Positions 22,751-28,405 of a stretch of 58,241 bases of DNA are shown here, piece by piece (positions within the stretch are counted from its first letter, which is position 1; the number at the start of each line of letters is the position of its first letter). Below the pieces are notes generated by a model that was given only the letters and a program-made list of their open reading frames with translations, was not told the DNA's origin and searched no databases. This DNA comes from Bacteroidales bacterium (GTDB lineage: Bacteria > Bacteroidota > Bacteroidia > Bacteroidales > VadinHA17): positions 1-58,241 of the forward strand of contig JAFGXX010000197.1 in assembly GCA_016936435.1 (NCBI GenBank), given 5' to 3'. A program made the translations under genes and the position numbers.

Positions 22751-23206
22751 GTGGAGCTAAAAAATCTTTTCATTGAGCCAACGGCGAAGACTCCCCGGAT
22801 TGAACTTAACCCCGCAACGGGCGAACTGGCCTTTAGCGGAAGATCGATACCCGAAAATGCTGTCGACTTATATGAGAATGTCTTCAAATGGGTAACTCAC
22901 TATTCCAAGGACCCTCAGAAGATAACCAATCTGCGGCTGAACCTGGAGTATTTCAATACCGCTTCTTCCATCTGGCTTGCCAAAATAGTGAAGACACTCT
23001 GTTCGATAAATGAACCGGAGAATACACTGATGATCCATCTGTATTTCAATGCTGATGAATTCGACAGCATGGAACTTGAAGAACTTAAAGACAGTTTCGG
23101 CCCTGTTATTGACATGATCGCGAATCCTATTGTAAGCATCGGCATTAAGATATATGCTCTTGACGACAATGGAGAGATATTAAAGGAGTCGGTGGTTTTA
23201 TTATAG
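22751..23206 (+). CDS. SiaC family regulatory phosphoprotein (DUF1987)
   Basis: T..TP.I, G.SIPENA, LEYFNTASS motif; GTG start. Confidence 0.8.
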   Translation: MELKNLFIEPTAKTPRIELNPATGELAFSGRSIPENAVDLYENVFKWVTHYSKDPQKITNLRLNLEYFNTASSIWLAKIVKTLCSINEPENTLMIHLYFNADEFDSMELEELKDSFGPVIDMIANPIVSIGIKIYALDDNGEILKESVVLL

Positions 23207-23280: not shown

Positions 23281-24777
23281 ATGCGCACCGGAATTGTTTT
23301 CCTGCTCACAATTATCACTATCATGGACCTTTTTTCACAAAACAGAACGGTTGACAGACAGCCGGTTGCTGCAGGACGATTTTACACGTCCGGCAAATCA
23401 ACACTCAGCACAGAACTGACAAAGCTCTTTACAGAATGCAAAAAAACGGATAAGCCACTGAAAACGAGGGCAATAATTTCCCCACATGCCGGTTATGTCT
23501 TTTCCGGCAGGATAGCGGCATCAGCATTTTCGGCAACTCCTCCCGATGCCGGGTATAAAAATATCTTCCTTATAGGTTCCAGCCACGTAATGGCTTTCGA
23601 AGGGGCTTCAGTATACTATACGGGTGATTTTATAACTCCCCTGGGCCGGACCATCGTTAACAGGGAGATAGGAGAAAAACTCAGGAAAGAAAATGCGGTT
23701 TTTAACTTCCCCACTACTGCTCATAACCAGGACCATTGTCTTGAGGTACAAATACCATTTATACAACATTATTATAAACCAACTCCGAAGATAGTCCCGG
23801 TCATTATCGGCACAACCAACCCCGCCACCATCAGGAAGATTGCTGAGGCTCTCAGACCATGGTTTACAAGTGAAAATCTTTTTGTTATAAGCAGCGACTT
23901 TTCACATTATCCGTCATATAACGAGGCCAGAAAAGCCGACGATCTGACAGCCAGAGGACTGGTATCGGGCGATCCGGATATGTTTCTGGCAGCTCTCAGG
24001 AAAAATTCATCCTCAAACATTCCCAACCTCGCAACGTCGATGTGTGGCTGGAGTTCCGGGCTGGCATTACTATACCTTACCGAAGGAAGAGATGAGTTTG
24101 AATATGTCAGGCTGGATTACTGCAACTCGGGCGATTCGGAATACGGAAGCAAAGATGAAGTGGTAGGTTATCATGCAATAGCTGTAGTGGAAAATACCGA
24201 GGAAGGAGCTTCCGGAAACGAACTGATGATTACCGGGGAGGAAAAAGATATCCTTTTCACCATAGCACATAATACCATAAAAAGCGCTCTTTCAGGTAAA
24301 ATGACCTACTCAATTGATGAAAACATAATCACAGCAGGACTGAAGCAACCTTATGGCGCCTTTGTCACTCTCAAAATCAAAGGGGTTCTGAGAGGTTGCA
24401 TAGGGCGGTTCGTGAGTGAAGAACCATTATATGAAGTTGTGAAAGCTTCAGCATACTCCTCGGCTTTCGAAGATCCCAGATTCCCTGCACTTTCAGAAAA
24501 AGAATATGAAAAGGTCGAAATGGAAATCACTGTCCTCGGCCCCATGCAAAGGATTGACAACATCGGTGAGATAAAAACCGGCAGACACGGAATATATATA
24601 AAGAAAGGGGCCCGGTCAGGGACCATGCTTCCACAGGTTGCAACAGAACATGGCTGGACCGTGGAAGAGTTCCTCGGTTATACATCGCGCGACAAGGCAG
24701 GAATAGGATGGGATGGATGGAAAGATGCCGAGATCTATATATATGAAGGTTTGGTTCTGGAAGAAAACAGAAAATGA
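23281..24777 (+). CDS. amrB: AmmeMemoRadiSam protein B (Memo) fused to protein A (AMMECR1), with predicted N-terminal signal peptide
   Basis: Memo part: R.PVAAGRFY, PHAGYVFSG, DHCLEVQIPF, SSDFSHY, MCG. AMMECR1 part: GAFVTL, LRGCIG, DPRFP, LPQV..E..W, KAG. Confidence 0.92.
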   Translation: MRTGIVFLLTIITIMDLFSQNRTVDRQPVAAGRFYTSGKSTLSTELTKLFTECKKTDKPLKTRAIISPHAGYVFSGRIAASAFSATPPDAGYKNIFLIGSSHVMAFEGASVYYTGDFITPLGRTIVNREIGEKLRKENAVFNFPTTAHNQDHCLEVQIPFIQHYYKPTPKIVPVIIGTTNPATIRKIAEALRPWFTSENLFVISSDFSHYPSYNEARKADDLTARGLVSGDPDMFLAALRKNSSSNIPNLATSMCGWSSGLALLYLTEGRDEFEYVRLDYCNSGDSEYGSKDEVVGYHAIAVVENTEEGASGNELMITGEEKDILFTIAHNTIKSALSGKMTYSIDENIITAGLKQPYGAFVTLKIKGVLRGCIGRFVSEEPLYEVVKASAYSSAFEDPRFPALSEKEYEKVEMEITVLGPMQRIDNIGEIKTGRHGIYIKKGARSGTMLPQVATEHGWTVEEFLGYTSRDKAGIGWDGWKDAEIYIYEGLVLEENRK

Positions 24778-27194
24778 TCATGTATCATGTCACGGGTACG
24801 CTAATCACAATCTCCCTTCTATATCTGACCAGTCTTTTTTTCCAAAGGTCGGGTATATATTCCCTGTTCTTTCACCGGATGTTTTGGAACTCGATACTGG
24901 CATTGACTTTTCTGTTTACCGCATTCGCCGGTATCTTCATGGCTCTGGCGACAAACTTCAAATGGGATAGCCCCTTCACCGGGCAACTGCTTTACTGGCA
25001 TGTGGAGGCAGGGGTGGCCATGGGTCTGACAGGGCTGCTACATTTAATCTGGCATTTATCATATTTCAGGGGCTTCTTAAGCAAGTCCGCAACACATAAC
25101 AGGAAAGTCAGCCCTTTGAGAAGGGAGCCCTTCTCAGTGGCCGCAAACCTCTTTATGGTTGGATTTACGAGCACAGCCGTGCAGATACTTCTGATAAGAG
25201 AACTTATGAATATTACCGGAGGCTATGAGCTGATAAGCGGTGTTTTTCTCGCTTCATGGCTTATCACATCGGCTGCCGGAGCTGCAATCGGAGGAAGATC
25301 TTCACTCAACGACCTGAGAAAGATCAATCTTCTGTTCGCCATTTCCCCCTTTATCTCAATAGTCCTGCTTCTTACCCTTTCACGACTTTTTCTTCAAACA
25401 GGAGAAGTTCCGACATTTATGGCAGGTATGATCCTTACGCTTGTATTGCTCCTGCCCTTTTGCCTGATTTCGGGTTTTACCTTTGTGAGGCTGATAATCA
25501 ACGCAAAAGAGATGAATAACTTTCCACCCGGACGGTCTTTTGCAATCGAAACCACAGGAGGTATTACAGCAGGTCTTCTGTTGACACTTCTTACCTCTGG
25601 TCTGCTGAACACATGGGAACTATTGCTCCTCATTCTGCTCTTATTCCTTGCATACATGACGCTGTCGTTTTACGTCGACAGAAAAGGACCGACTTTCATG
25701 ACGAAGCTGTTTTTTACAGTCATTATTTCAGCTGCAGTTATTTCCGAACCCGACATACTCTTCAGGCAATTTCTGCTTTCCTCAATACATGTTACCTCCA
25801 CAAGGGACACTCCCTACGGCAATATAACCACAGGTGAATATTCAGGAGAGGAAAGTGTATGGTACAATCACATTCTCCTCAGTTACCCTGATGATGCCAT
25901 TGAAAGAGAAGAAAACATCCATTTTGCAATGCTTCAGGCTGATAACCCTGAGACTGTCCTGCTGATCTCTGGTAAACCGGAATCACATATACCCGAAATA
26001 CTGAAATACGGTGTTAGAAAAATAACATATGTAGAAAGGGATCCTTATCTGGCAAAGAACGCTGAAACATTGAATATCGAAACGGCTGCGGAGATTATCG
26101 TTGAAAACAGTGATGCTTTCAGATATATAGGAAAAACAAAAGAGGTTTTCGATTTAATAATACTGCTTCTGCCTCCGCCTTCGACCTTCTCCCTGAACAG
26201 GTACTATACATCGGAATTTTTCGAAGATGTCAAAAAAAGGCTCTCACAGGGCGGGGTATTCATGTGTTCACCGGGACCTAACGATTATTATTTAAACCGT
26301 GAATCCGTAAACCTGTATTCTTCTATCCATAACAGTCTGGCGTCAGGCTTCGGCAATGTGATTCCCGTTGCCGGCAATAAATTATTTTTTATCGCATCCG
26401 ACAAGAAGATCTCCGTCGCATTTTCAAAACTCGTTTCAGAAAAAGGAATTAAAAATCTTTATGTTAACCCCGGATTTCTCTCCGACGACCTTACAGAAAT
26501 CAAATCCGCTGAAATTAAAGCCCTTATGGATTCAGGGATAAGAAAGAACCATTCCTCTCATCCTGTGGCATGTTTTCATTTCCAGTCATATAATCTGAGT
26601 AAAGACCTGAGCAAAAAAATACCTGCAATAGTACTAATGGTTGCAGCATTTCTTCTCCCTCTTCCGGCAGTCAGGCGGAAAAACATGTTGATGTATTTCT
26701 CTGCGGCCTCCCTCGCAGGTTTCGAAATAATAGTATTGCTTGCTCTTCAGATAGCTGTCGGCAACATGTACCAGATGACAGGTCTGGTTATAGCTATTTT
26801 GATGGCAGGTCTGGCAGCAGGAGCCGGCATTGCTTTCAGATGGGAAAGTGTCAGCAGACTAAAGCTGATCGCCTTTATGCTGATCCTTTATTATTTAGCG
26901 GCAGCTTTGGCGACAGGGGCGGTCACAGAGATAAAGAGTTCATTCGTCGCGGCAGCGCTGATTCTTATCTCGGTTTTGCCACCTGCCTTCATAACCGGAC
27001 ACATCTTCCGGACACTTACAGGCAGGTCCCATGCAACAAATCCTTCAGGGTCAACCTATAGTGCAGATCTGGCAGGTTCTGCACTGGGTTTTATTCTGTT
27101 ATCAGGTGTTGCAGTTCCTGCTCTGGGATTAAGGAATTCCGTCATTCTGTTATCGGTCTTTTTGTTTACAGGCATAATTTTCGCGAAAAAGTAA
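24774..27194 (+). CDS. Polytopic membrane protein: His-containing (DUF4405/cytochrome-b-like) N-terminus, TM block, spermidine-synthase-like SAM fold, TM block
   Basis: WHVEAG...LHLIWH; QILLIREL; TPYGNI, EENIH, YVERDP, DAFRYI, NRYYTSEFF; YSADLAGSALG; ATGA overlap with the upstream gene. Confidence 0.75.
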   Translation: MIMYHVTGTLITISLLYLTSLFFQRSGIYSLFFHRMFWNSILALTFLFTAFAGIFMALATNFKWDSPFTGQLLYWHVEAGVAMGLTGLLHLIWHLSYFRGFLSKSATHNRKVSPLRREPFSVAANLFMVGFTSTAVQILLIRELMNITGGYELISGVFLASWLITSAAGAAIGGRSSLNDLRKINLLFAISPFISIVLLLTLSRLFLQTGEVPTFMAGMILTLVLLLPFCLISGFTFVRLIINAKEMNNFPPGRSFAIETTGGITAGLLLTLLTSGLLNTWELLLLILLLFLAYMTLSFYVDRKGPTFMTKLFFTVIISAAVISEPDILFRQFLLSSIHVTSTRDTPYGNITTGEYSGEESVWYNHILLSYPDDAIEREENIHFAMLQADNPETVLLISGKPESHIPEILKYGVRKITYVERDPYLAKNAETLNIETAAEIIVENSDAFRYIGKTKEVFDLIILLLPPPSTFSLNRYYTSEFFEDVKKRLSQGGVFMCSPGPNDYYLNRESVNLYSSIHNSLASGFGNVIPVAGNKLFFIASDKKISVAFSKLVSEKGIKNLYVNPGFLSDDLTEIKSAEIKALMDSGIRKNHSSHPVACFHFQSYNLSKDLSKKIPAIVLMVAAFLLPLPAVRRKNMLMYFSAASLAGFEIIVLLALQIAVGNMYQMTGLVIAILMAGLAAGAGIAFRWESVSRLKLIAFMLILYYLAAALATGAVTEIKSSFVAAALILISVLPPAFITGHIFRTLTGRSHATNPSGSTYSADLAGSALGFILLSGVAVPALGLRNSVILLSVFLFTGIIFAKK

Positions 27195-27256
27195 AAATGA
27201 TATGCTTATGAATACTTAATTCTGTCCGTTAAAGGATTATTTTTGAAAAAAAATCA

Positions 27257-28405
27257 ATGCATGGAACTTTGAAAAACAAAAACCGCAATATCAGCAAGAG
27301 AGAATTCGTCAGAAAATGTTTTGCAGTGTCATCAGGTCTGGTATGTATGCCGCGCTTCGCTGTTTTCAGCGCGGATAATGAAGAAAATCAGGAACTTCAC
27401 CGTAAGCTTGCCATGTATCAGGAAGAGACACCCCGGGGGATAATGTGCAGAATATGTCCCAACGAATGCGTGCTGAAGGAAGGGGAAATAAGCGACTGCA
27501 GGAACAGGATCGTACGTAATTCGAAGTTATACACCATGGCTTTCGGCAACCCCTGCTCGGTTAATGTCGATCCGGTCGAAAAAAAACCTTTATATCATTT
27601 TCTTCCAGGAACACGGGCATTTTCGATAGCTACGGCCGGATGTAACATGTCGTGTCTTAATTGTCAGAACTGGGCCATTTCCCAAACCAGCCCCGACAAG
27701 ACCAGAAATTACGATCTGATGCCCGACAGAGTAGTAAGCGAAGCTGCCCGTAACAAATGCCGTTCGATAGCTTACACATATTCGGAGCCCACAACATTTT
27801 ATGAATATGCCTGTGAGACATCTGTGATAGCCCGCAGGGAAGGTATACGTAATATCTTCAAGACAAACGGCTATATCAATCCGGAGCCGCTGAAGAATAT
27901 ATGCAAATACCTCGATGGAGTAAATGTGGATCTTAAATCCTTCTCCGAGAGCACCTATCTCAGGCTCACAGGCGGAAAACTTCAGCCGGTGCTTGATTCC
28001 CTTAAAATATACAGGGATATGGGTGTATGGCTCGAGATTACCAATCTGATAGTACCCGGATGGACCGATAATATGGATGAAATTGAAAGCATGTGTAAAT
28101 GGCTTGGTGAGAATGGATTCAGAGATACTCCTCTGCACTTCAGCCGTTTTCATCCGACCTACAAGCTGCAGCAGCTCCCTCCCACTCCCATCGAAAACCT
28201 GAAAAACGCCGTTACTATTGCAAGGTCCGAGGGCATAAGGTATGTTTACACAGGCAATGCTCCAGGTCATGATATTTCCGACACAAAATGCGCAGCATGC
28301 GGGACAACGCTAATAACGCGTCAAGGCTACACGGTAACATCGAACTCTGTAAAGGACGGTAAATGCAGCAATTGCGGAAACCCCGTCCCGGGAGTATGGA
28401 CCTGA
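27257..28405 (+). CDS. amrS: AmmeMemoRadiSam radical SAM enzyme with Tat-like N-terminus
   Basis: CRICPNEC, DPVEKKPLYHF, GCNMSCLNCQN (CxxxCxxC), AYTYSEP, LHFSRFHP, C-terminal CxxC..CxxC; ISKREFV leader. Confidence 0.93.
   Translation: MHGTLKNKNRNISKREFVRKCFAVSSGLVCMPRFAVFSADNEENQELHRKLAMYQEETPRGIMCRICPNECVLKEGEISDCRNRIVRNSKLYTMAFGNPCSVNVDPVEKKPLYHFLPGTRAFSIATAGCNMSCLNCQNWAISQTSPDKTRNYDLMPDRVVSEAARNKCRSIAYTYSEPTTFYEYACETSVIARREGIRNIFKTNGYINPEPLKNICKYLDGVNVDLKSFSESTYLRLTGGKLQPVLDSLKIYRDMGVWLEITNLIVPGWTDNMDEIESMCKWLGENGFRDTPLHFSRFHPTYKLQQLPPTPIENLKNAVTIARSEGIRYVYTGNAPGHDISDTKCAACGTTLITRQGYTVTSNSVKDGKCSNCGNPVPGVWT

Follow-up and report, generated by a model that had tools for sequence, protein, structure and literature searches.

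The AmmeMemoRadiSam system comprises an AMMECR1-type protein (AmrA, TIGR04335), a Memo-type protein (AmrB, TIGR04336) and a radical S-adenosylmethionine (SAM) enzyme (AmrS, TIGR04337), and RNA base modification has been proposed as its role (PMC2034487, PMC4075521). We analyzed an operon of this type in a 58,241-nucleotide (nt) stretch of Bacteroidales DNA (contig JAFGXX010000197.1 of assembly GCA_016936435.1; hereafter, the window). All three components exceed their family cut-offs within one neighborhood, their motifs are intact, and the core residues of AmrS match those of leaderless homologs. Unlike the described system, this one carries predicted export signals on each of its soluble proteins and is constantly accompanied by a membrane protein. 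The operon appears to be a real, widely conserved exported variant of AmmeMemoRadiSam, which is apparently undescribed as far as we could find.

Other described systems resemble individual parts of the operon. Like membrane-fused spermidine synthases (PRK03612, NF037959), the membrane partner has helices of the major facilitator superfamily (MFS) type around a spermidine-synthase fold, but it scores far below the cut-offs for these families (63 versus 472 bits and 14.5 versus 40 bits), has lost the catalytic Asp and the acid of the Gly-rich loop, and carries an extra N-terminal module with histidines. This module shares conserved membrane histidines and weak DUF4405 matches with the DUF4405/FezC haem-b cytochromes, although it has three helices and two invariant His where the cytochrome of PMC11334425 has six and four. 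Relatives of the operon's proteins carry genuine FMN_bind and Fer4_5 domains by fusion, a feature that recalls the NapH-like flavinylated electron conduits (PMC8238504). The nearest solved relative of AmrS is pyruvate formate-lyase (PFL) activating enzyme (E 2e-8, residues 117-282), but AmrS differs in having a leader and two additional four-Cys sites, and its neighbors include no glycyl-radical enzyme. Neither Memo nor AMMECR is mentioned in the main texts of PMC11334425 and PMC8238504. An exported form was not found in literature on AmmeMemoRadiSam, AMMECR1/Memo, periplasmic radical SAM enzymes or flavinylation, a body of work whose coverage here is incomplete for Memo gene context and for the cluster table of PMC8238504. 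A search for literature on fused MFS/spermidine synthase proteins likewise found none.

Gene layout and export signals

The operon consists of three open reading frames (ORFs), the first two joined by an ATGA overlap at 24774-77 and the last two separated by 62 nt, just as an earlier reading of the sequence (the initial annotation) had described. Its features are as follows, in window coordinates.

23281-24777, + strand: amrB-amrA fusion, 498 amino acids (aa), with a Memo domain at residues 26-302 (TIGR04336, E 2e-64) and an AMMECR1 domain at residues 324-490 (TIGR04335, E 2e-45)
23281-23337, + strand: predicted Sec/signal peptidase I (SPI) signal peptide, cleavage before Gln20, based on sequence, homolog pattern, start context and the Q-rule
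23323-23325, + strand: Met15, candidate second start of AmrB-AmrA (cytoplasmic isoform)
24774-27194, + strand: 806-aa membrane partner with 17 predicted helices
24774-25073, + strand: N-terminal three-helix DUF4405-like module in which His76 and His90 are invariant; a candidate for electron conduction through haem b
25134-25757, + strand: MFS N-terminal bundle plus one extra helix (predicted transmembrane helices 1-7)
25758-26612, + strand: spermidine-synthase-fold domain (from fold match and alignment), predicted periplasmic from the positive-inside count, catalytic Asp replaced (Leu465)
26613-27191, + strand: extra helix plus MFS C-terminal bundle (predicted transmembrane helices 8-14), from the structure model and fold match
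27257-28405, + strand: amrS, encoding a 382-aa radical SAM enzyme that contains CxxxCxxC plus two further four-Cys sites
27257-27373, + strand: Tat-type (twin-arginine translocation) leader of AmrS; motif S-K-R-E-F-V-R at 27293-27313

The AmrB-AmrA fusion is the sole AmrA or AmrB match in the genome and scores well above both cut-offs (AmrA, 154.3 against 99 bits; AmrB, 217.4 against 26 bits). PHAG, DFSH, RGCIG and DPRF motifs are present, in agreement with the Memo His/Asp and AMMECR1 RGChG/DxRa signatures (definitions from PMC2034487 and PMC7694686). Its leader combines a basic N-region and a hydrophobic core with a Ser-Gln end, matching the Bacteroidota Q-rule pattern in which signal peptidase cleaves before Gln (PMC5837995), and homologs retain both the leader length and the xxS/A-Q end. 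We rejected the idea that AT-rich DNA upstream of the gene only mimics a signal peptide: Met1, the frame and the length are kept, and distant homologs carry unrelated signals.

AmrS matches TIGR04337 at 347.6 bits (cut-off 220) with the radical SAM CxxxCxxC intact. Its leader follows the pattern S-K-R-x-F-L/I-K, and a Lys-Arg (KR) motif occurs in 23 of 30 same-genus loci, the query included; one of the others lacks an in-frame leader and six do not reach the amrS gene, so the motif is found in 23 of 24 readable loci. Homologs from Deltaproteobacteria and other groups carry canonical Arg-Arg (RR) leaders. The genome encodes tatC and two tatA, and the hydrophobicity of the AmrS leader (2.0) lies inside the range of the genome's RR leaders. 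KR leaders support Tat export that is slower but real, with TtrB as a natural example (PMC1182353). Slow export could leave time for loading of the iron-sulfur (Fe-S) clusters.

We trained a matrix for start sites on this genome, using 580 starts and 6,265 internal ATGs; it places the first ATG of AmrB-AmrA at the 58th percentile of the training starts and that of AmrS at the 65th. The initial annotation had allowed that the true starts might lie downstream or that homologs might lack the leaders; the downstream contexts score low (Met15 of AmrB-AmrA, 10th percentile; Met53 of AmrS, 4th), and the leaders are conserved. Since the first ATGs score as real starts and the alternatives do not, the leaders are probably translated. 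We judged leaders and topology by pattern, hydropathy, AlphaFold2 (AF2) modeling and homolog comparison, and on these grounds AmrB-AmrA and AmrS are likely both exported.

Exported and cytoplasmic AmrS proteins have 42 near-invariant columns in common and differ in one, from which we expect the two compartments to host the same chemistry. The envelope-side modification that had originally been envisaged gains no direct support here, the AmrS active site being the same as in cytoplasmic homologs.

Met15 of AmrB-AmrA lies within the normally variable signal yet is invariant in 38 of 38 family homologs. In 24 of 33 homologs the DNA upstream of it scores above 95% of internal ATGs, and the start score peaks at this codon (median z of 1.49 relative to synonymous recoding, compared with 0.56 for 160 control signal peptides). 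Against its use as a start, neighboring windows have scores almost as high, the homologs are closely related to one another, and the context in the query is poor. Two AmrS proteins exceed the cut-off in 29 of 35 congeners, with a partial second match in three more, and 32 of the 35 have one strong AmrB match. The second-copy N-termini that were read (G000, G043 and G060) are leaderless, as is that of the single AmrS copy of G033. A cytoplasmic AmrB-AmrA isoform initiated at Met15 and serving the leaderless AmrS is a tentative proposal that we hold to be less probable than its absence. Use of Met15 does not refute export, and it may occur in addition within this family. Such an isoform might explain the leaderless AmrS of Prevotella as well, though not why the signal has been retained there.

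The second AmrS of the present genome (G000:C179:613-1677, locus L001) is leaderless and has no amrA or amrB beside it; its neighbors are, we presume from their sequences, a class IV aminotransferase and a 3'-5' exonuclease. Seven Prevotella loci (L047, L052, L054, L058, L061, L064 and L065) have a leaderless AmrS and retain the AmrB-AmrA leader, which is signal-like and mostly contains a run of Met codons; the membrane gene was found in none of three Prevotella genomes searched. The C-terminal four-Cys site is absent from AmrS in L047 and L065, the Prevotella loci in which this end was read. In a Woesearchaeota genome (L042), AmrS bears an RR leader, AmrB-AmrA is of the lipoprotein type and the membrane gene is present; three AmrS homologs (P0173, P0187 and P0242) carry a LAGLIDADG intein.

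The operon lies between siaC and ligA in a housekeeping region of Bacteroidales type, and its nearest relatives belong to the Bacteroidales. The stand-alone SiaC-family gene (22751-23206) is 74 nt upstream of amrBA and is syntenic in 14 close loci only. Scans for promoters and terminators gave chance levels of matches (15 versus 11.6 and 7 versus 5.9).

The membrane partner and candidate electron conduits

The initial annotation had recognized a large polytopic membrane protein between the two enzymes but missed its anatomy, which includes a spermidine-synthase-fold domain inside an MFS fold and a DUF4405-like module. An AF2 model built with 78 sequences (predicted local distance difference test score, 85.7; predicted template-modeling score, 0.85) places an MFS fold at residues 121-328 and 614-806. 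In the VIA-align comparison, this part matches VMAT2 with a Z of 23.0 and a root-mean-square deviation (rmsd) of 4.0 over 326 aligned residues. SotB (Z 22.9) and many other MFS structures (Z 17-23 over a model range of about 115-806) also match, and the predicted arrangement is that of two six-helix bundles with termini on the cytoplasmic side. A BLAST search for an internal repeat between the MFS halves gave a weak result (E 0.005).

Residues 329-613, between two extra helices, adopt a predicted spermidine-synthase fold (Z 22.8, rmsd 3.0, 272 residues aligned to 1uir), and PF01564 matches at residues 379-513 (E 1e-11). With helix limits set from hydropathy and the AF2 model, Lys plus Arg counts on the two sides are 22 versus 4 in the query and average 17.5 versus 4.6 over the 78 sequences; by the positive-inside count, therefore, the domain is placed outside. 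Glu421 and Asp447, which we take to be the adenosyl-binding acids, are each kept in 75 of 78 homologs. The presumed catalytic Asp is replaced by Leu465 in the query, a position assigned from the alignment, and is kept in only 3 of 78, all distant homologs. The acid of the GGG(D/E)G loop is Pro402 in the query and Glu in 1 of 78, and the Gly-rich loop as a whole is decayed and variable. Glu379, Pro469 and Asn592 are invariant in all 78. With the catalytic Asp and the Gly-loop acid lost, we reject the idea of an active spermidine synthase.

The initial annotation had assigned the membrane protein to electron supply, to transport of SAM or product, or to both. Transport fits the modeled MFS fold with its outward-facing adenosyl-binding fold, and we slightly favor an adenosyl ligand as the cargo; only the N-terminal module makes a role in electron supply plausible. 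This module (residues 1-100) has three helices, with His76 and His90 present in 19 of 19 members. DUF4405 (PF14358) matches 5 of the 19, always below the cut-off (best 26.5 against 26.7 bits), and an Atlas value of 0.87 for DUF4405 is a lead only. A fold search with the module alone returned unrelated helical bundles (best Z 8.5), and comparing its sequence with those of solved structures yielded no match better than E 0.4. Haem b is bound by a DUF4405 protein that has six helices and four His (PMC11334425); the present module, being half that size, would have to dimerize to do so. A role as a haem conduit is conceivable, although we would put it below an even chance. The module is a separate gene in L025 and L028. 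In G065 (L121:1149-1808), a fusion protein carries the DUF4405-like module after a Sec signal and a small domain rich in Cys.

Relatives of AmrS offer other candidate conduits. We scanned the predicted ORFs of the 39 longest AmrS representatives for fusions. Two of them (P0137 and P0151) run from an anchor through an FMN-binding domain with a flavinylation motif to the radical SAM domain, with no hydrophobic segment between, and three (P0129, P0135 and P0162) have an extra NapH-like domain and one more helix before AmrS. Three long representatives carry a DsbD_2 domain, and one representative is a signal-bearing Memo-AMMECR1-AmrS triple fusion. The membrane protein of G070 is itself fused to FMN_bind and Fer4_5. 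FMN-binding and NapH-like modules act as extracytosolic electron conduits (PMC8238504), and these fusions, as predicted from sequence, are the best independent sign that AmrS is outside and needs electrons there.

The fused membrane partner occurs in G070 (L123:1-3747) and in L068. Its C-terminal tail resembles the stretch before the first Cys cluster of AmrS, and the amrS gene of the same genome starts just before that cluster, giving a split AmrS as in L046. Near the exported amrS of L082 (L082:1364-7845) and L080 are genes for a Tat-signal DUF362 protein, a NapH-like polyferredoxin and a DUF6599 protein, with a second DUF362 gene directly upstream.

Co-occurrence of the membrane gene and exported AmrS

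The membrane partner gene is present in 35 of 36 same-genus genomes. Among the best 80 of 589 confirmed loci, selected by AmrS similarity, 37 have both an AmrS leader and the membrane gene, 34 have neither, 7 have only the leader and 2 only the gene. Both gene-only loci proved to be leader-bearing: an RR leader had been missed in L015, and L046 has a split AmrS whose anchored N-terminal piece is the preceding ORF. Genome-wide searches for five of the seven leader-only loci found a full membrane gene elsewhere in four and only the N-terminal module in one.

The initial annotation had pointed to this association as a check on its proposal. We drew 24 genomes of the same order without regard to the trait, taking one from each family, and added the congener G033 (AmrS threshold E 1e-40). 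In this set, a full membrane gene is accompanied by a KR-leader AmrS in 7 of 7 cases, whereas AmrS without the membrane gene bears a leader in 0 of 8; ten genomes have no AmrS at this threshold. In G033, loss of the membrane gene went hand in hand with loss of the exported AmrS, and amrBA remains between siaC and ligA. Conserved leaders, co-occurrence and fusions together lend good comparative support to the original proposal of two exported soluble proteins with a dedicated membrane partner.

We also built a FastTree phylogeny of 212 AmrS domains. Of these, 82 come from loci and 130 from a set of 150 representatives, 20 of which were left out as partial, duplicated or intein-bearing. Because 83 of 84 signal-bearing rows fall on one side of a branch with support of 91, the leader and membrane-gene traits belong largely to one clade; the leaderless AmrS on C179 is on the other side.

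A neighborhood census of the loci for clues to the substrate found that only syntenic housekeeping genes recur, no envelope gene recurs among distant neighbors, and no neighbor points to a substrate. A motif resembling isoaspartate methyltransferase was rejected as a substrate clue, occurring in only two loci, at 4-6 kb from the core genes. In three related loci, a gene for a secreted MsrB (SelR) lies directly 3' of amrS (L017:9200-9664, L021 and L023:9094-9660). Isolated neighbors include a purine phosphorylase (L048:4684-5544), a nucleoside-recognition protein (L068:10912-12207), an ICMT-type methyltransferase (L039:6875-7627) and a Tat-signal metallophosphoesterase (L049:7069-7983).

Competing explanations and implications

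On balance we lean, from sequence comparison, toward a periplasmic AmmeMemoRadiSam unit consisting of a Sec-exported AmrB-AmrA, a Tat-exported AmrS and an MFS partner that moves SAM or its cleavage products. AmrB-AmrA would leave the cytoplasm by Sec, and AmrS would leave by Tat with its Fe-S cluster already loaded. The MFS partner would pass SAM out, or cleavage products back, by way of its outward-facing, catalytically disabled spermidine-synthase domain, the ligand being SAM or 5'-deoxyadenosine. The AmrS cluster might be reduced through the DUF4405-like module, with FMN-binding and NapH-like conduits replacing it in other lineages. The Gly-Cys motif that is invariant in AmrA could receive a radical from AmrS, a step favored because the nearest solved relative of AmrS is the PFL activase. 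Such activase-type chemistry would require little SAM outside; we nonetheless regard this step, proposed by analogy, as doubtful. The reaction would be the same as that of the cytoplasmic system, with a substrate present in both compartments.

Several observations weigh against this reading. The KR leader of AmrS is unique in the genome, where 35 of 36 Tat-like leaders are RR (identified by pattern among 2,020 ORFs, with probably a few false positives among the 35). The leader also has a short hydrophobic region and a cleavage site of low conservation, and export through it would be slow. In 15 of 130 representatives AmrS has Sec-type or helix anchors and no Tat motif, and acquisition of the cluster outside is not accounted for in these cases. 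In Prevotella loci, L032 and G033, AmrB-AmrA keeps its signal although the membrane gene is absent and the only AmrS present is leaderless. The co-occurrence comes mostly from one clade and is not phylogenetically independent; a test on independent pairs found one pair on well-supported branches (sign test, p = 1) and had no power. The N-terminal module of the query has no Pfam match, and many homologs lack the module.

If the system is exported, the membrane protein might have a different task. Its spermidine-synthase-fold domain could be another active transferase, for example a methyltransferase, acting on an envelope molecule and fed by the MFS part. The retained fold and adenosyl-binding acids, the three residues invariant in 78 of 78 homologs, the presence of PF05175 in 29% of members of an Atlas cluster of relatives and the catalytic Asp of three distant homologs would all suit such an enzyme. 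The decayed and variable Gly-rich loop would not, nor would the lack of a recurring envelope gene among distant neighbors, and loss of the membrane gene together with AmrS rather than with AmrB-AmrA fits a supply role; we consider a transferase improbable. Less probable again is that the MFS protein imports a product of periplasmic scavenging or damage repair while AmrS leaves SAM-bound and recycles its SAM. An MFS fold with an outward-facing binding domain would serve import equally, and the MsrB gene after amrS in three related loci and the purine phosphorylase or nucleoside-recognition gene near the core in single loci are consistent with it, but these neighbors are not conserved across lineages.

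The remaining alternative denies export of AmrS altogether. Its leader would be weak or a membrane tether, AmrB-AmrA would be made mainly from Met15, and the unit would work at the cytoplasmic face, where SAM and low-potential reductant are found. The uniqueness of the KR leader, the invariance of Met15 with its start-like context in most homologs, and the leaderless AmrS of Prevotella all point this way. However, Deltaproteobacteria and other groups carry canonical RR leaders, other families include signals that lack Met15, and the Met1 contexts here score as real starts; moreover, the FMN-binding fusions place AmrS on the outer side, where the spermidine-synthase domain is also predicted to lie. 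We judge this the least probable of the explanations considered.

Radical SAM enzymes are treated as cytoplasmic because of their need for SAM and a strong reductant. A periplasmic member, if confirmed, would need routes for both, and the operon offers candidates for each. The fullest form of the periplasmic reading, in which a new SAM exporter and interchangeable electron conduits feed the enzyme, one amrB-amrA gene yields two forms, the reaction runs on both sides of the membrane and RNA is excluded as the substrate, seems to us unlikely to hold in its entirety. A periplasmic location fits poorly with an RNA substrate, and the RNA base modification proposed for AMMECR1 and its radical SAM and dioxygenase-like partners (PMC2034487) would be hard to achieve for an exported copy whose active site is unchanged, which narrows the substrate question. 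If the reaction does occur on both sides, RNA would be ruled out for this system, among whose components are relatives of the human proteins MEMO1 and AMMECR1. The three-gene unit makes the question of the AmmeMemoRadiSam substrate testable by knockout or reconstitution.

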